In this document: in pieces, positions 980 through 10,133 of the stretch
Layout of the letters: the number at the start of each line of letters is the position of its first letter
Numbering within the stretch: the first letter of the stretch is position 1
DNA from: Pirellulales bacterium
GTDB taxonomy: Bacteria; Planctomycetota; Planctomycetia; Pirellulales; JAICIG01
Assembly: GCA_035533075.1 (NCBI GenBank)
Contig: DATLUO010000081.1
Coordinates: 50,292 to 114,291 of the forward strand
Direction: 5' to 3'
DNA: 64,000 nucleotides
Notes under the pieces: model-generated
The model's database searches: none
Seen by the model: only the letters and a program-made list of their open reading frames with translations
Told to the model about the DNA's origin: nothing
Position numbers and translations under genes: made by a program

Positions 980-2281
980 TCACCTCTTGGCTTCGCGAAT
1001 CAAGCCCTCGATGATCGGCGTAAGATCCCCGCCGTGTTCCTTGTAGCGAATGACCCCTTTCGCGTCGAGCAGATAAATTGTCGGCCAGGCGTCGACATGC
1101 CAACGAGTGCAGATGGCGCCGTCGCGGCCGCCGTCCCACCAACAGTGCCAGGTGATTTCGCCGCGGCGGACCGCCTCGCGCAGAGTGTCGACCTTCTCGT
1201 CGCCGCTGACGCTCAACAGGACGAACGGTTCGTTGCGCCACTTTTCTACCGACTCGCGCTCGGCGGGATACGCCGCAACGCAAGCGCCGCACCAGTTCGC
1301 CGAGAACGTCAAGCAGACGACCTTGCCGCGATAGTCGCTCAGCCGGAACACGACTCCGCCGGCATCCTTGCCTTCGATTTCGGGTGCTTGGCAACCGACT
1401 TGCAAATGCTCGATGGCAAACAGCATCCCTTCGGCCGCTTTGGCGTAGGTCTTGTCGGGCGACGGCGCGCTCGTCAAGCGAATCCGCGAACCGGCCGCGA
1501 GCTGATACTCGGGGTAGCTCACGTCGGCGAATTCCGCCGTCAAGCGCTTGAGCAGTTGCTGGGCCTCGCCCACGTATCTCTCCGGCGGCTCCGAAGTCAT
1601 CGACTTCATATAGGGAATCGTCACGAGCAACCAGAAGCGGCGCCATGTCGCATCGTCTTCGGTCTCGGTGCTGCGAATCCGGTCCGCCAGTTTCGACCGC
1701 TCGTACAGATAGCATGCCAGATAGTAGCAGGCCGCGGCCCGCACTTCGCGGTGCGGGCTCTTGTCAAGAGCGGCGCGCAGCAAGGCTTCGGCCTTCGCCG
1801 CTGGAACCACCCAATGCACCTTGACAAGTGCCTGGTCGAGCTCTCGGTCCTCGATATGCCTGCGGAGGGCCAGTTCGAGGGCGCGCTCCTGGACTTGCCA
1901 GGCGGGCGATTCCGGATCGCTGGAATTGCCCAAGGCATGGCACAAGGCCGGTACTGCCACGCGGGGATCGGGCTCGCGTTCGGCAAGGGCCAGGAATTCA
2001 GCGGCCATCATGTTTTGCGGCTGCCGTCGCTGATCGTCGCGGATGCAAGCTAAAAACTCGGCATCGGTCAGCCTGGCGAGAAAGGAATCGGTCCTTTCCT
2101 TGTGCGTCTTCAGGTCCTCCCGCGAGTCGTTCTCGAACTTCTGATAGACTTGCTCCAACTCCTCGAGATGGCGTTTGACTTGGTTGCCGGGCTCCTCGGC
2201 GGCACTGGCGTGCAAGACACCGGCGAAAAGAAAACCGGCTCCTAGGAGGCAAAGCATGAAGGTGCTTTTGCACGGCCGCAT
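980..2281 (-). CDS. Secreted TlpA/ResA-like thiol-disulfide oxidoreductase with an N-terminal helical domain
   Basis: Signal peptide MRPCKSTFMLCLLGAGFLFAGVLHASA starts at the Met at 2281 (the ORF is open to 2356). C-terminal redoxin motif is LTFSANWCGACVAAYP (WCxxC). Last gene of the blaI-blaR1 operon on the minus strand. Confidence 0.8.
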   Translation of the reverse strand: MRPCKSTFMLCLLGAGFLFAGVLHASAAEEPGNQVKRHLEELEQVYQKFENDSREDLKTHKERTDSFLARLTDAEFLACIRDDQRRQPQNMMAAEFLALAEREPDPRVAVPALCHALGNSSDPESPAWQVQERALELALRRHIEDRELDQALVKVHWVVPAAKAEALLRAALDKSPHREVRAAACYYLACYLYERSKLADRIRSTETEDDATWRRFWLLVTIPYMKSMTSEPPERYVGEAQQLLKRLTAEFADVSYPEYQLAAGSRIRLTSAPSPDKTYAKAAEGMLFAIEHLQVGCQAPEIEGKDAGGVVFRLSDYRGKVVCLTFSANWCGACVAAYPAERESVEKWRNEPFVLLSVSGDEKVDTLREAVRRGEITWHCWWDGGRDGAICTRWHVDAWPTIYLLDAKGVIRYKEHGGDLTPIIEGLIREAKR

Positions 2282-2437
2282 TGGAATCTCCATGAATGAG
2301 AGCGAGGCGGAGACGGGGCACATTGCAGATCTACCGGGCGCATCCGAGAAAAGCAAGGGGATGGGTGCTTGTGGGACCCCTCGGTTAGCATAGCCCGCGT
2401 AAGCACCAGCCAGCCGGAAAACATGCCCGGTTGACTT

Positions 2438-4417
2438 TCAAAACGCCTCGATCCAGCTTTGCTGCGAGGCTTGCGTGAATGGAACGCGCAGAAGTACCTT
2501 GCCCGAGGGAGCGAGCTGCAAGACTTCTGAATCGCACGAGACCCAAACGGCGCCGGTCGTGGGACTGACGGCGACTTTGTAGGCCGTCATCGGCACCGGC
2601 TCGCCCACCTCGCCCGCGGCCGAAATAAATCGCACGCCGTCGCGCCGCCCCGCAACCCAGGCGCCGCCCATCTTCGGCACGCAAGCGACGCTGAACACCT
2701 CGAACTCGCCTAATTCCGTCTTATGTCGAACGCCGCCGTCGGCGTTCAGCAGCCAGACGCGGTTCTTGCTGCGAGGAATGTCGGGATGAGAGCGCTCGGT
2801 CAGCCAGACGCTGCCGTCGTTCGGGTTCACCGACAGCGAGGCGCAGCACCAGCCGTCGACCCGCTGGCGAAACAACACTTTCCCTTCGCGGCTGAGCTTG
2901 ATGGTTTCATAGCCGGCCAGCCAAAAGGCGTCGTCGTGAGGATCGTAGGCCAGGTCGATGGCGAGGAAAGGATAGGCGGCAACTTCGTTCCCCTCAGGGT
3001 CGGAGACGAGGGTCTCGCCGTCGTTGAGCCGCTGCCCGCCGCTCGTCCAAAGATTGCCGGTCTTGGCGTCGACCGCCAGCGCATCGGCCTCGACCTGCTC
3101 AATTTGCCAGAGTTTTTGCCCGTCGATAGCGAACGCCACGATCCGGTTGGCGACATTCTCTCGGACATAAATGCGCTCTCGCTGCCGGTCGACGGCGACC
3201 CCATTTACTCCACCGACCGTCTTGCAGCAGTTGAAGCCCGTCGCCGACCAAAGCTCGTCGCCGCTGCTCGAGAGCAGCCGCAAAGCGTCGTGGTGCGGTT
3301 TCGTGTTATCGTAATCCGGATCGGCGTCGTCCAGCAGCACGACTGCGGGCTTTTCGGGCAGCGGTTTCGCGGCGCCCGTCGGCTCGAAGCGCGTGATTGG
3401 GAAGCGGGCGAACGGCCGCCCGGCGTTGTCGAACAGCTTGTCGTCGGCCAAGGCGGCGGCCACGGCCTTGCGCAGCTCCTCGCCGCGCAGGTTCCTGGCC
3501 AGTACGCGGCCGTCGGGGGCGATCAAAAACGTGCCGGGCAAGCTGCGCACCGTGTAAGCGGTCGCCACGTGGCCATTGGTGCCCCCAGCGAAACCCTGCC
3601 GCCAGGGAAGCCGCTTTTCATCGACGTAGCGCTTCGCCACATCAGGCGTGTTGTCGCAGGACAGGCTAATGAGCGCAAACCGCGGATCACCGCCGAACTC
3701 GTCGTACAGTTTTTCGAAGGCGGGAATCTCAGCCAGGCACGGAGCGCACCAGGTGGCCCAAAAATCGAGGAGCACCAGCTTGCCGCGCAGTTTGCTCAGG
3801 CGCAACGACCCGCCCGAAAGCTGCTCGACTACAAAATCGGGCGCCAGCTCGCCCGCGTCGAGCGTATCGAACAGCACGGCCTCGATCTGGCCCAGGTCGA
3901 GCGGTTCGTCGCTTCGTCCGCCGGGCACCTCGGGCACGGTGAATTCGAGTTCGGCGCGGCCGATCTCCGTGCCGACGCCGTAGGCACTCGGTGAGGGCGG
4001 GTTGGCGATGGGAACCCTTAGCTTATAGGCGCCGGCCGGCACATCGGTTATTTCAAAGTGGCCATTTTCGTCCAGTTTTGACAGATACCTCGCGGAGGGC
4101 CAGGCATAGGCGCGCTTGCTCGCGTCCCAAGCGATTATTGCGACGGGATTATTCGTTTCCCAATCAATCCCGAGCTTGTTCTTATCGGTAAGCATTACGG
4201 AACCGACGACGGTCCTGCCCCTGCCGCCGATCATGATCTTCGTAATCCGTCCTGGGCGGATATCGACGGGCGCCTGCCAGGCGTACCACCGCATTGAACT
4301 ACCAAGATAACTGGTGACGACGACTCTGCACACCGAACCCTTGCCGGGAATGACACGGTCGATGGTGAATCGACCATTTTTGTCACTCTTGAGTTGGTAA
4401 TCTTGGAAACCGTACAC
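2438..4417 (-). CDS. TlpA-like thioredoxin domain plus C-terminal beta-propeller-like region; probably the distal part of the upstream BlaR1-like gene
   Basis: Redoxin motif LLDFWATWCAPCLAEIP. The N-terminus (YGFQDYQLKSDKNGRFTIDRVIPG) is the second half of a carboxypeptidase-regulatory-like module. GTG start at 4417 is in the same frame as ORF 4421-7378 and only one sense codon after its TAA. Confidence 0.75.
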   Translation of the reverse strand: MYGFQDYQLKSDKNGRFTIDRVIPGKGSVCRVVVTSYLGSSMRWYAWQAPVDIRPGRITKIMIGGRGRTVVGSVMLTDKNKLGIDWETNNPVAIIAWDASKRAYAWPSARYLSKLDENGHFEITDVPAGAYKLRVPIANPPSPSAYGVGTEIGRAELEFTVPEVPGGRSDEPLDLGQIEAVLFDTLDAGELAPDFVVEQLSGGSLRLSKLRGKLVLLDFWATWCAPCLAEIPAFEKLYDEFGGDPRFALISLSCDNTPDVAKRYVDEKRLPWRQGFAGGTNGHVATAYTVRSLPGTFLIAPDGRVLARNLRGEELRKAVAAALADDKLFDNAGRPFARFPITRFEPTGAAKPLPEKPAVVLLDDADPDYDNTKPHHDALRLLSSSGDELWSATGFNCCKTVGGVNGVAVDRQRERIYVRENVANRIVAFAIDGQKLWQIEQVEADALAVDAKTGNLWTSGGQRLNDGETLVSDPEGNEVAAYPFLAIDLAYDPHDDAFWLAGYETIKLSREGKVLFRQRVDGWCCASLSVNPNDGSVWLTERSHPDIPRSKNRVWLLNADGGVRHKTELGEFEVFSVACVPKMGGAWVAGRRDGVRFISAAGEVGEPVPMTAYKVAVSPTTGAVWVSCDSEVLQLAPSGKVLLRVPFTQASQQSWIEAF

Positions 4418-4420
4418 CAG

Positions 4421-7378
4421 TTAGGGATGCGCGCGTTCGCGAACAAACGCCACTTCGCATTCCGGAGCGAGCTTTCTCCCCATCGCGACGAGCCCCTCGA
4501 TGCGGCCCCACGGTTCGAGCACGATCGGGGCGTCGGGTTTGAATTCGCTATGGAGCCGCTCGGCATAGCCTTCGTCGTGAACAATCACCAGCAGGAACGG
4601 CTCGTCGCCCTGAGGCGGAAACGCGAAGCGACCGTCGGCGCCAGTTTTGACGACGTCGGCCTGGTTTTGATGCCGGTCGAAGTTTCCCGACTTCAGAACA
4701 GCACGATTCTGTTGCGTCGCCAATCCCACCTCGGCACCCGCTGCCGGTGAACCATCGGCGAGCAGTACGACGCCGGTCGGCCCGTTGCCCGGTTTCAACT
4801 CGAGGTCGAAGCTTTGCTTTCCTTCCGTCGAGCGGAAAACACGGGAGGTGGCCGGCAAATAGCCGTCGGCGACCACTTGCAACACATGGCCTTCCATCGG
4901 CTCGTCGAACTTGATGTCGTACTCGCCCTTTTCAAACAGCGTCGGTTCGTCGCGCGACCACGACACGTCGTCTCGGTTCGCGGACCGCCAGCCGTGACGC
5001 AGGCGGAACTTCTTGACGGGCTGATGCGAGACGGCATCGGTCACTCGGCCGCCGATCGTCAGCTCCGGGTAAAGCGTGACCTTGTGCGTTTCGGCCGAAG
5101 CCGCCAGCGGCGTTCGCCGCGCCGACATATAGCCGCTCTTGAGCAGGTCGAACAAAACGGCGTCGTCCGGCGCTGAGCGAAACACGGCCTTTCCCTGAGC
5201 GTCAGTCCGCGCGCTCAGCTTCAGCGTGCGATAGCCGCGCCAGGTATCGCTGACCACCCATACCTCGTTGAGGGCCTTGCCGTTTACGTCCGTGACCTGA
5301 ACGCTCAGCGTGTGGCCCGGTTGCAACTCAAATCGCAAATCTTTGGTCTCTTCGCTGAGGGCCAGCTCCTGGAACGTGGGTGAAAAGCCTTCGCCCTGCA
5401 CCGTGACCAGCGATCTGCCCGGCTTGCAGTTCTTCAAGACGAACCGCCCCTGAGCGTCCGTCGTTGCTTCGGGCTCGTTCGTGCCGAAGCGGCTGAAGCC
5501 CAGCCGCGCCTGAGCCCCTGCAACGGCCTTGCCATCTCGATCGACCACTTGCCCTGCCACTTGCAGGCCCTGCTTGAGCACAGCCACATTGCTTAGGCCT
5601 CGATTGGCTGTCGAGTAGCCCGACAAATAATCCGCATGCTCAACGCGAATGCCGACCGCGCCGATGTCGGCTGGCGCATCATCCCAAGTCCAATGGCCGT
5701 CGGCATCCGTGTTGAGCGTGGCCGCCGTGAACATGTAATTCGCCAGCTTCGGCCAAGTGACGGGCATGGAGACATCGAGCGAGGCGCCCGCGATCGGCCG
5801 GCCTTTTTCGTCCTCGACCATGCCACCGATTTGTGTGCCTTCATCGAAACGCAGGTCGATGCGCGCCGGCATTTCGATCTTCTGCTGCTCGCCGCGCCAG
5901 ACGTGATGAATCGAAACGAAGCCAGCCTTGGCGGCCGTCATCCAGAGGTGATTGATCTCTTCCTTGGCCGGCCAGGTCAGCCGCGCTTGGCCATCGCGGT
6001 CGGTCGTCACGAATTGATTGAAGTTCTGCCCGCCGATTCGGCCGCCGAACCGCAGGCCCGCGCCGGCCAGTGGCTCGTCCGTGTCGGCGCTGACCGCTTG
6101 AATCAACGTCGTTTGATTCGTCTTGTCCGGCGCGTTCGGCTCGGTCTCCTTGGCGGCGTGGTTGTTCTCGGTTTTGCTCGCCGTCGCCTTGTCGGGCGAC
6201 TGCCGCGCGGCGGTGGGCGGTTCGGCGATCGTTTCGCTGATGGTGAGGCCGCCCCACAGCAAGCTGGCGGCGGCGACCACGGCAACCGCCGCGGCCACTC
6301 GCCATTTAGGCAAACTTATGATTCCGGTTTGCCGCCGCATCGCCTCGATGCGGTGCAGGACGCGAGAGCTGCGCGCCATCGCCAGGCCGACCACTTTGGG
6401 CTGCTCCGCAAGGCGCAACGCGAGGCGCGCCAAGATGCAAACATAGAAATCGGCGTCTTTGATGCAGCCGGCGGCCAACGCGTCGCAGACGTAGTCGCAA
6501 GCATCGACATGTGCCCGCCGCGCCAACCAGATGAGCGGGTGAAACCAGAGCGCGATCGACAGCGCGTGCAGCAGCAGATTGAACGCGGGATCATTCCCCT
6601 TCAGGTGAGCGAGCTCATGCGCCAGAATCGCGCCCAGTTCCTCGCGTCGCGCCGCCTCGCATTGGCACGAAGGCAGCAAAACGAGCGGTCGCCAAACACC
6701 GATCAGGCACGGCGTTGCGAGGCGCTTGGTCTGTACGATCCGAAAGGCACGCCGCAGTTGCAACCGGGCGGCCGCAACGGTCGCTTCACCGGCCACCCAG
6801 CCGGGCACGGCGAACGAGTCGGTCCTGATAAGGCGCAGGCGGACAATTCCGACCGCCGTCCAGAGAATACCGACCAGTGCGCCGATGGACCAGCAAGTGA
6901 GCGCCAGAGCAGCCAGCGACAAGGTCCGCGGCGCCAGGTGGGCGGCCGTTGTTTCAGCGCGTTCGCCCGTCGCGTCGCAAGCGTCGTCTGAAGACGGCGG
7001 TTGGCCGGGGGGGCCGTGATCTGCACTCGTCCCTTCCTGGGCGATGGCCGGCGCCTGCCGGGCCGCGGCGCCTTCGCTCGCCGGAGGCGGCGTGGTGCGG
7101 GCCGCCGTGAATGAAACGTCGCGCATTGTTTCGCCGGCGTCAAGGTGTGTGGATTCGATGGCACTGGTATTTTCCATCGCCTGTCGCGGCCGCAACAGGC
7201 GGAGATTCACCAGCGGCGGAGCGAGCGACAATGCCGCCACGGCGAGCATTGCCAGCGCCGTCATCCGCCAAACGAGCACGCGCCAACGTGGATTCGAGCG
7301 GGCCAGGATGGCATGAAATATCCAGGCCATTGCCAGCACGACAGTCACCTTGCTTAGCAGCACCAGCGTCGCGTTCAT
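4421..7378 (-). CDS. BlaR1/MecR1-family M56 membrane metalloprotease sensor with a long array of carboxypeptidase-regulatory-like repeats
   Basis: N-terminal TM helices. HEXXH zinc motif in ILAHELAHLKGNDP. Repeated G-x-V-x-D-x-x-G-K/R-P...TD-x-x-G-x-F modules. ATGA start/stop overlap with the upstream BlaI gene. Confidence 0.85.
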   Translation of the reverse strand: MNATLVLLSKVTVVLAMAWIFHAILARSNPRWRVLVWRMTALAMLAVAALSLAPPLVNLRLLRPRQAMENTSAIESTHLDAGETMRDVSFTAARTTPPPASEGAAARQAPAIAQEGTSADHGPPGQPPSSDDACDATGERAETTAAHLAPRTLSLAALALTCWSIGALVGILWTAVGIVRLRLIRTDSFAVPGWVAGEATVAAARLQLRRAFRIVQTKRLATPCLIGVWRPLVLLPSCQCEAARREELGAILAHELAHLKGNDPAFNLLLHALSIALWFHPLIWLARRAHVDACDYVCDALAAGCIKDADFYVCILARLALRLAEQPKVVGLAMARSSRVLHRIEAMRRQTGIISLPKWRVAAAVAVVAAASLLWGGLTISETIAEPPTAARQSPDKATASKTENNHAAKETEPNAPDKTNQTTLIQAVSADTDEPLAGAGLRFGGRIGGQNFNQFVTTDRDGQARLTWPAKEEINHLWMTAAKAGFVSIHHVWRGEQQKIEMPARIDLRFDEGTQIGGMVEDEKGRPIAGASLDVSMPVTWPKLANYMFTAATLNTDADGHWTWDDAPADIGAVGIRVEHADYLSGYSTANRGLSNVAVLKQGLQVAGQVVDRDGKAVAGAQARLGFSRFGTNEPEATTDAQGRFVLKNCKPGRSLVTVQGEGFSPTFQELALSEETKDLRFELQPGHTLSVQVTDVNGKALNEVWVVSDTWRGYRTLKLSARTDAQGKAVFRSAPDDAVLFDLLKSGYMSARRTPLAASAETHKVTLYPELTIGGRVTDAVSHQPVKKFRLRHGWRSANRDDVSWSRDEPTLFEKGEYDIKFDEPMEGHVLQVVADGYLPATSRVFRSTEGKQSFDLELKPGNGPTGVVLLADGSPAAGAEVGLATQQNRAVLKSGNFDRHQNQADVVKTGADGRFAFPPQGDEPFLLVIVHDEGYAERLHSEFKPDAPIVLEPWGRIEGLVAMGRKLAPECEVAFVRERAHP

Positions 7379-7761
7379 CGTCGTTCCTTTGGCGCGGAGC
7401 GCCGTAAGAGTTGTTCGTCGGCGAGACGTTTCAGCTCGATGAGATGTTCTTCGCTCAGCTTTTCGCTACGGATGAGATTGAGCAGCAGCGCCTGCGTCGA
7501 ACCGGCACAATAGGTGTCGATCAGCTCGCGCAGCGTTTTGCGCAGGGCCGATTGCCGGCGCGTGACGGCCTGATAATAAAACGCCTTGCCGACCTTTTGC
7601 CGTCGGACGTGTCCCTTCTCGCACAAGATGGTCAGGTACGACCGCAGCGCGGGGTTCTTGATCGGCTCCGGATAGAGCCGATGGATTTCACTCGGCTTCA
7701 TCTCGCCATGCTCCCACAGCAGTCGCATTACGTTCAGTTCGCCGGGCGTAAATCGAGGCAT
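7375..7761 (-). CDS. BlaI/MecI/CopY-family winged-helix transcriptional repressor
   Basis: 128 aa. ELNVMRLLWEHGEMKPSEI...LRSYLTILCEKGHVRRQKVGKAFYYQA is typical of the Penicillinase_R family. Overlaps the BlaR1-like gene by 4 nt. Confidence 0.85.
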   Translation of the reverse strand: MPRFTPGELNVMRLLWEHGEMKPSEIHRLYPEPIKNPALRSYLTILCEKGHVRRQKVGKAFYYQAVTRRQSALRKTLRELIDTYCAGSTQALLLNLIRSEKLSEEHLIELKRLADEQLLRRSAPKERR

Positions 7762-7891
7762 GGCAGTTTAACCGCGTCGAGAGGCCAATGTGCAGAGAAT
7801 ACTGCACGTGATGATCGCTGTCAAGCGCCGGTCCCCTGTGGGGAAACGCAGGGTTCAACGATGGCGATTCTTGGGACGCAGGGCCCCTCGT

Positions 7892-9498: not shown

Positions 9499-9753
9499 AT
9501 GACTGAGCTGAGTCGCGAATTGCAGCAGGCCCTCGATAGTCAGGCGGACGCACCGCCGCGGCTCGTCGATCCGCGCACGAAGAAAGCCTACGTGCTTCTG
9601 GCCGCTGAGCAGTACGAGCGGATCAGGGCGCTTTTGGAGCAGGACGACGATCTGAGCCACACGTATCCGGCGCAGATGGAGGCCGCGATGCGTGCCGGCT
9701 GGGGCGATGCGTCGATGGATGACTACGACCGTTACGATGATCTGCGCGGCTAA
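9499..9753 (+). CDS. Putative antitoxin of a MazF/PemK-type module (family unassigned)
   Basis: 84 aa. Ends 2 nt before the toxin start. Its acidic C-terminus SMDDYDRYDDL resembles that of the second antitoxin at 46260-46496 (SMDIYDEYD). Confidence 0.6.
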   Translation: MTELSRELQQALDSQADAPPRLVDPRTKKAYVLLAAEQYERIRALLEQDDDLSHTYPAQMEAAMRAGWGDASMDDYDRYDDLRG

Positions 9754-9755
9754 CG

Positions 9756-10133
9756 ATGTCTCTCTCCCGTGGTGACATTGTTCTGGCGGAACTGCCCTAC
9801 GTTCTGGCGGAACTGCCCTACAGTGATCGCAGCGGGGTGAAAGTGCGGCCGGCACTTGTCGTGCAAAACGACCTCAACAATCGCCGCCTCCAGGACGTCA
9901 TTCTCGCGCTCATCACCAGCACGACGCGCCGCGCCTCGCTGGAACCGACCCTGCTTTTGATCGACATCACGGCCCCCGATGGCAAACAGGCCGGGCTTCT
10001 ACACACCTCCGCCATCAAGTGCGAACACCTGATCACGCTGCATCAGCGATTCGTCAAGCGCGTCATCGGCCGCCTGCCGCGGGCAGTCATGCAGCAGGTC
10101 GACGGTTGCCTCAAGGTTTCGCTTGGCATTTAA
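9756..10133 (+). CDS. MazF/PemK-family endoribonuclease toxin carrying an internal 7-aa tandem duplication
   Basis: RGDIVLAELPY...VKVRPALVVQND...ITS...IKCEHL is a PemK-like pattern. Paralog at 45913-46263. Contains the 21-bp tandem duplication at 9780-9821. Confidence 0.75.
   Translation: MSLSRGDIVLAELPYVLAELPYSDRSGVKVRPALVVQNDLNNRRLQDVILALITSTTRRASLEPTLLLIDITAPDGKQAGLLHTSAIKCEHLITLHQRFVKRVIGRLPRAVMQQVDGCLKVSLGI
9780..9821 (+). repeat. Perfect 21-bp tandem duplication (2 copies) inside the mazF-like gene
   Basis: gttctggcggaactgccctac occurs at 9780-9800 and again at 9801-9821. It is in frame and duplicates VLAELPY. Confidence 0.95.

Follow-up and report, generated by a model that had tools for sequence, protein, structure and literature searches.

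The closest described systems are the BlaR1-BlaI and MecR1-MecI pairs, in which a sensor-protease brings about the signal-dependent proteolytic inactivation of its repressor (PMC7593790). The window analyzed here, a 64,000-nucleotide (nt) stretch of a contig (DATLUO010000081.1) of a Pirellulales bacterium (Planctomycetota), carries on its minus strand a gene for a related membrane sensor-protease that is interrupted by a single in-frame TAA codon and called as two genes. The reading preferred here, with a probability of roughly 75%, is that the TAA is a genuine, evolutionarily recent nonsense mutation that has left a truncated allele or incipient pseudogene.

Like BlaR1 and MecR1 (MEROPS family M56; Staphylococcus aureus), the interrupted protein combines a multi-pass membrane amino terminus with an M56 module bearing the invariant HExxH, and it has a large extracytoplasmic carboxyl-terminal region in the sensor position. 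A Penicillinase_R repressor gene lies immediately upstream with a translational overlap, as in BlaR1/MecR1, and the pairing is kept in orthologs. The sensor differs from that of BlaR1/MecR1 in two ways. About eight transthyretin/Ig-like β-sandwiches, a TlpA-like CxxC thioredoxin and a 7-bladed propeller replace the class-D β-lactamase-like penicillin-binding sensor, and the distal sensor modules in the window copy are cut off by the stop. The interrupted protein has no transpeptidase or β-lactamase Pfam match at E <= 0.1. An earlier reading of this DNA, hereafter the original prediction, labeled the protein a BlaR1-like sensor, which is right for the M56 protease module and the BlaI partner but not for the penicillin-binding sensor domain. 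Because that domain is absent, the protein is an M56-family sensor-protease and not BlaR1 in the strict sense. No study of this sensor-protease family was found in the literature on BlaR1, M56 and Planctomycetes.

The interrupted gene consists of the following parts, the two open reading frames being abbreviated ORF1 and ORF2:

4421..7378, minus strand: ORF1, the 5′ part of the interrupted gene, 985 residues, identical to NCBI HVA46847.1
4421..4423, minus strand: the premature ochre stop (TAA); its third position, window base 4421, is the one that changed, orthologs having TAC/TAT (Tyr)
2438..4420, minus strand: 3′ part of the interrupted gene, CTG plus ORF2 (GTG 4417, 659 residues, TGA stop 2438-2440), encoding the rest of the cut β-sandwich, two further β-sandwiches, the TlpA-like thioredoxin and the β-propeller

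The minus strand reads ...GAA CGC GCG CAT CCC TAA CTG GTG TAC GGT TTC CAA... across the junction (window 4560-4300), with TAA at 4423-4421, CTG at 4420-4418 and GTG at 4417-4415 all in the same frame. In the ORF list, 4421..7378 (minus strand, 985 residues) has an ATG start and a TAA stop, and 2438..4417 (minus strand, 659 residues) has a GTG start; the NCBI version of ORF2 is a 618-residue protein from ATG 4294 (HVA46846.1). Translation of 2438-7378 as one frame yields 1,645 sense codons and a single internal stop at codon 986, and the 659 in-frame codons past the stop show 68-74% identity to the corresponding stretch of orthologs that have no interruption, far beyond chance. The GC content at third codon positions is 0.77 in both pieces. 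The coordinates and peptides of the original prediction all match the re-read sequence, ORF list and translation, and its single interrupted frame of 1,646 codons is confirmed.

Homologs treat the two pieces as one protein. A 303-residue query centered on the stop retrieved homologs that cover 98-100% of it with no break. The joined 1,646-residue query retrieved 16 single-protein orthologs of 1,614-1,684 residues and 39-69% identity that cover the joined sequence unbroken. The closest, P0041, is a single protein of 1,652 residues with 68% identity over 100% of the query; the next, P0042, comes from another metagenome-assembled genome (MAG) of the Pirellulales and is a single protein of 1,651 residues with 60% identity; and ~14 further full-length orthologs (1,614-1,684 residues) have 39-50% identity. 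The alignment of these 17 sequences, window included, is collinear end to end, and all 16 orthologs are fused. When ORF2 was searched exhaustively with HMMER against 1.84 billion cluster representatives, the 150 matches listed gave the same picture. The first 15 residues of ORF2 are reached by 84 of these matches, and 83 of the 84 run past the junction on its upstream side, 60 by >500 residues; the sole match that starts at the junction (P0177, 324 residues) is probably a fragment. All of ORF2 is spanned by 31 listed matches, none of which begins <142 residues upstream of the junction. The two ORFs are halves of one gene, and the fused state is ancestral; the alternative that the original prediction had held out as decisive against it, orthologs consistently encoded as two genes, is not what these comparisons show (16/16 fused, 83/84 running on upstream). 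A search of genome contigs with the ortholog alignment returned only unrelated TlpA loci drawn by the generic thioredoxin motif DFWATWCxPC.

The origin of the stop is evident from the codon alignment. The window reads CGC GCG CAT CCC TAA where P0041 reads CGC ACG CAT CCC TAC and P0042 reads CGC ACG CAT CCC TAT, and Tyr occupies the stop column in 8 of the 16 aligned orthologs, the two closest included. The stop is accounted for by a single transversion in the third position of the codon (window base 4421), Tyr986 TAY becoming TAA. One mark of a nonsense-mutated gene, an in-frame stop one base away from the sense codon of its orthologs, is present. The loop at the stop also differs by in-frame length, with 5 codons fewer before the stop and 3 more after it, and its length is variable across the family.

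The stop falls inside a repeat with the signature G-x-V...TDxxGxF...PG, and TDxxGxF recurs at residues 459, 557, 640, 725, 998 and 1102. The cut copy is:

4229..4513, minus strand: cut β-sandwich repeat, fused residues 956-1050, PWGRIEG...HP*LVYG...SDKNGRFTIDRVIPG... (asterisk, the stop), identified from the AlphaFold2 (AF2) model, the translation and homologs that are continuous across it

The AF2 model of the junction segment (predicted local distance difference test score (pLDDT) 83.9, predicted template modeling score (pTM) 0.80) contains three tandem β-sandwiches. The stop corresponds to model residue 118, in a loop that joins strands 107-112 and 121-124 within the middle sandwich (~95 residues). 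Strands 90-98 and 107-112 are on the ORF1 side, and strands 121 to ~182 are encoded by ORF2. Foldseek matches the junction model to pilin/SdrD/CnaB-type Ig-like repeats, and Pfam gives no significant match across the repaired junction. On the alignment and the predicted structure, the stop interrupts a β-sandwich domain once its first two strands are complete. The carboxypeptidase-regulatory-like repeat module that the original prediction saw split between the two pieces is borne out by the recurring TDxxGxF motif and the junction model.

The part of the gene past the stop is intact. No further stops or frameshifts occur in its 659 codons, and every family-invariant column is kept, CxxC (CAPC) included. 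The ratio of nonsynonymous to synonymous substitution rates (dN/dS) and the three-point branch lengths are:

dN/dS, window versus P0041: downstream 0.19, upstream 0.33
dN/dS, window versus P0042: downstream 0.21, upstream 0.26
dN/dS, P0041 versus P0042 (both intact): downstream 0.24, upstream 0.30
Three-point branch length, window lineage: downstream 0.18, upstream 0.32

The window-lineage branch is not lengthened downstream of the stop, and none of the secondary decay that marks a pseudogene (extra stops, frameshifts, raised dN/dS) is found. Because these comparisons span a large divergence (dS ~0.9-1.1), they chiefly show that the mutation is young relative to the divergence of the orthologs. 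A recent nonsense mutation, one of the options in the original prediction, is favored by the TAY to TAA change at a Tyr codon together with the lack of downstream decay.

One rival to a recent nonsense mutation, an unlikely one, is functional fission: ribosomes ending at 4421-4423 would re-initiate at GTG 4417 and give a short sensor-protease plus a separate thioredoxin-propeller protein, both useful. The GTG shares the frame of the stop and follows it by 3 nt, ORF2 is intact with a divergence that resembles purifying selection, and some lineages seem to do without the carboxyl-terminal modules. Relatives in the family of 1,100-1,170 residues match only the first 70-80% of the query and have no thioredoxin match, and in members of 1,270-1,340 residues the thioredoxin is kept and the match ends at 80% of the query. 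The low dN/dS, however, is measured against distant orthologs and so covers mostly time before the mutation, and the construction of ORF2 does not suit an independent protein. It begins in the middle of a β-sandwich with 2 of ~8 strands left on ORF1. No Shine-Dalgarno or GGAGG-like sequence lies upstream of GTG 4417 or ATG 4294. ORF2 has no transmembrane (TM) segment and no signal peptide or hydrophobic amino terminus (maximum Kyte-Doolittle score of 0.89 in the first 80 residues), although the homologous region follows the last TM helix in the intact protein and is extracytoplasmic there. TlpA-type thioredoxins usually reside in the extracytoplasmic compartment, a location that only the uninterrupted protein provides and ORF2 alone does not. 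P0015, a homolog that does look free-standing, has the hydrophobic signal-peptide-like amino terminus and the start at a domain boundary that ORF2 lacks, and P0177 is the only one of the 84 representatives to start near the junction. The re-initiation option of the original prediction is unlikely on these grounds.

Three short homologs (P0001, P0002 and P0007) that apparently start mid-domain were considered as evidence of a natural split and rejected, being from long-read contigs on which the BlaR1-like gene is chopped into pieces; their rejection also counts against fission. Long-read-style contigs of this kind (L091, contig_3690; L092, contig_30; L094, contig_85519_np1212) carry BlaR1-like genes called as 2-3 consecutive pieces, probably through indel errors, and fragments from them appear in protein databases as seemingly stand-alone β-sandwich or thioredoxin proteins. 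A different kind of shortening is found in P0059 (970 residues; L093 4001-6913, GCA_035948895.1, DASZIS010000636.1), a BlaI-paired M56 relative that lacks ~240 internal residues (about three repeats) and ends 13 residues into the thioredoxin domain, where it abuts convergent bpX3/bpX1 genes. With P0059, the family has lost the distal sensor modules a second time, independently.

An origin of the TAA in sequencing or assembly, or as the consensus of a polymorphic population whose cells mostly carry TAC/TAT and make the full-length protein, is likewise improbable. The exact 985-residue product is found on 8 contigs and the 659-residue product on 5. Contigs of 66,456, 110,723, 121,472 and 121,698 nt come from ENA, JGI, Logan and NCBI as separately built assemblies, and all copies of the locus are identical in sequence. 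Since the same stop is present on 8 contigs of differing size from separately built assemblies and differing pipelines (NCBI, JGI, Logan and ENA), an assembly artifact is unlikely, as is the base-call or assembly error entertained by the original prediction. Substitution errors in a short-read consensus are rare. No other interrupted gene is evident in the window, unlike the long-read contigs L091, L092 and L094. The points in favor of an artifact are that the change is a single base, that the downstream gene is perfectly intact, that the window is identical to ENA contig ERZ27256801 k141_179030, a MAG-type MEGAHIT contig, and that identical copies could trace to related read sets. Exact-pattern scans of metagenome and genome contigs for the junction with NNN at the stop gave no match, hence no sense-codon allele and no second strain, and a junction-peptide search of metagenome contigs gave short, distant matches only; a sequence-divergent strain carrying the locus was not found in these pattern and peptide scans. 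One candidate variant of ORF2, P0119, was rejected because it differs only in writing the GTG start as V or M; contig look-ups for P0119 and P0120 gave no match.

Programmed or leaky readthrough, or local recoding, by which one mRNA would give both the 985-residue form and a ~180-kDa full-length form, is very unlikely. The Pro-UAA-C context, the intact downstream part and an unusually stable RNA fold just past the stop would suit it. The 114-nt window starting at the stop has a fold z of -3.27, and the one starting 9 nt past it has the lowest z of 128 windows across the gene (-3.48); z for the structure past the stop spans -3.1 to -3.5. This fold is shared with stop-free orthologs, in which z at the same place is comparably low (P0041, -3.56; P0042, -1.9 to -2.7), and its core, the hairpin GGUCGAU-N5-AUCGACC, is coding sequence for the conserved G-R-F-x-I-D-R motif and is the same in those orthologs. 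Because both the hairpin and the low z occur where there is no stop, the RNA fold is a by-product of the coding motif, and its candidacy as a recoding signal, or as a plus-strand signal, was rejected. On the plus strand the hairpin GGTCGATGGTGAATCGACC (window 4357-4375) was flagged as terminator-like; it is the core of the low-z fold and is also present in P0041. The stop occurs in 0 of the 16 fused orthologs and 0 of 40 junction homologs (0 of the 14 aligned), so that neither of the two marks of recoding, a conserved stop and a site-specific stimulatory RNA element, is found. In bacteria no stop codon is terminated more efficiently than UAA, and TAA terminates other genes in the window, which has no suppressor tRNA. 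The readthrough option of the original prediction finds no support in the unconserved stop and the shared RNA structure. Reassignment of TAA was rejected because 7 further gene-sized ORFs of the window have TAA as their stop and no tRNA gene, and hence no suppressor tRNA, was found there.

Several points weigh against a recent nonsense mutation. A GTG only 3 nt past a stop is a geometry that allows termination-reinitiation in bacteria, and a proline codon before the stop slows termination in E. coli. The TAA is known from assemblies and may be a consensus error or the major allele of a mixed population (TAA major, TAY minor), and the assemblies that share it may derive from overlapping read sets and may not be independent as samples or strains. 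The lack of decay over 1,977 downstream bases fits recency and continued selection on a still-expressed carboxyl-terminal part equally well. The boldest reading, for which the odds are very long, is that the TAA is a maintained allele and that the cell, by terminating slowly at Pro-UAA-C, by re-initiating at the GTG or by both, makes a truncated sensor-protease plus either a little full-length protein or a separate thioredoxin-propeller protein. If true, the locus would be a two-isoform or fission variant of a BlaR1-type signaling system.

The interrupted protein and its operon partner carry the following features:

6605..6619, minus strand: HELAH zinc-binding motif of the M56 protease; all 17 aligned sequences keep H254, E255 and H258
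3503..3853, minus strand: TlpA/AhpC-TSA-type thioredoxin domain, PF00578, E 4.1e-20, ORF2 residues 189-305
3737-3748, minus strand: CAPC active-site motif of the thioredoxin domain, a WCxPC-type motif
2441..3400, minus strand: carboxyl-terminal 7-bladed β-propeller, ORF2 residues 340-659, AF2 pLDDT 91.5, pTM 0.91
7375..7761, minus strand: BlaI/MecI-type (Penicillinase_R) repressor gene, 128 residues, PF03965, E 3.4e-24; its stop overlaps the sensor-gene ATG by 4 nt
7796..7824, minus strand: candidate sigma-70-like promoter TTGACA-17-TATTCT before the BlaI-like gene, 10/12 consensus matches, by consensus match only

ORF1 matches Peptidase_M56 (PF05569) with E 3.6e-24, above the gathering score, and CarboxypepD_reg with E 2.9e-30. 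Hydrophobic segments lie at about residues 3-21, 34-57, 153-183, 268-286 and 353-380, with none later, by a Kyte-Doolittle scan, a crude method. ORF2 has a second thioredoxin-family match (Redoxin PF08534, E 9.9e-14), and the top Foldseek matches of the propeller model are 7-bladed propellers (designed or YVTN) and YncE at a template modeling score of ~0.7. The TlpA/β-propeller label that the original prediction gave to the second piece is sound on the strength of the PF00578 match and the modeled propeller.

The interrupted gene is the second gene of a conserved two-gene operon in which a blaI-like repressor gene is followed by the gene for a ~1,650-residue M56 'BlaR1-like' membrane protease-sensor. 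A BlaI-like gene of 127-128 residues with the same 4-nt overlap precedes the sensor gene in L003, L004, L005 and L093. By analogy with BlaR1/MecR1, the sensor of the intact protein would lie outside the cytoplasm and act across the membrane on a zinc protease, which in turn would inactivate the BlaI-type repressor. The sensor part comprises ~8 β-sandwich repeats, the TlpA-like thioredoxin and the 7-bladed propeller. Here translation would stop after residue 985, two strands into a β-sandwich, presumably with efficient termination. The main product would still have its membrane anchor and protease, along with about five and a quarter repeats, but not the last two and a half β-sandwiches, the thioredoxin or the propeller. 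A polypeptide started anew at either GTG 4417 or ATG 4294 would have no export signal, would remain in the cytoplasm, the wrong compartment, and would probably be non-functional. The truncated protein may be partially functional, as the natural short members of the family suggest.

Other observations concern the neighboring genes and the repeat. The deposited repressor call is 108 residues (start 7701), and ATG 7761 gives 128 residues, like the 127-128-residue orthologs; the deposited start is probably too short because the 128-residue version fits the ortholog lengths. Directly downstream of the interrupted gene lies a second TlpA/AhpC-TSA-type redoxin gene (window 980-2281, minus strand; ORF list 980..2356; 433 residues as called), with a thioredoxin domain 32% identical to that of ORF2; its position is taken by unrelated genes (DUF885, tRNA synthetase) in L003 and L004. 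A PemK-family toxin gene (125 residues, 9756-10133, plus strand) after an 84-residue partner gene (9499-9753) lies a few genes upstream of the blaI-like gene, and the two are likely a toxin-antitoxin pair. On the long-read contig L091, positions 401-2350 and 3111-4808 encode extracytoplasmic function (ECF)-type sigma-70 domains (r2/r4) fused to CarboxypepD_reg/Big_1 β-sandwich repeats (649 and 565 residues), and the repeat stalk is therefore common to M56 sensors and sigma-factor-linked proteins.

The main value of these results lies in annotation. A single disrupted gene stands in the public records as two proteins, HVA46847.1 ('carboxypeptidase regulatory-like domain-containing protein') and HVA46846.1 ('redoxin domain-containing protein'), each of which is one half of it and merits a pseudogene or truncated-allele flag. 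The locus is also a clean natural truncation in a widespread planctomycetal family that pairs a BlaI repressor with an M56 protease bearing a β-sandwich stalk, a TlpA-like thioredoxin and a propeller. Were the organism cultured, relatives in which the gene is whole would offer a comparison that could reveal what is sensed by the distal thioredoxin and propeller.

Set against known systems, the locus records an ordinary gene-truncating event in a recognizable, uncharacterized family, with no new mechanism. The thioredoxin domain shares the AhpC-TSA/Redoxin fold and the WCxPC motif with TlpA-family periplasmic thiol:disulfide oxidoreductases. Free-standing TlpA relatives such as P0015 consist of a signal peptide, three β-sandwiches and the thioredoxin, whereas here the thioredoxin is an internal module of a giant sensor and, as ORF2, has no export signal. 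The nearest relatives are the planctomycetal proteins that JGI names 'beta-lactamase regulating signal transducer with metallopeptidase domain/thiol-disulfide isomerase' (P0041, P0042 and P0047), which share the domain order, the upstream repressor and collinear identity of 39-69%; the in-frame TAA at the Tyr986 position belongs to the window copy alone. Unlike ordinary nonsense pseudogenes, the gene shows no secondary decay yet, because of which the mutation is recent or the allele polymorphic, and by chance it has a start codon 3 nt past the stop, which is why gene callers report two genes. In its other features it resembles ordinary bacterial nonsense pseudogenes and truncated alleles: a single-base change from sense to stop, in-frame homology beyond it, and intact orthologs.

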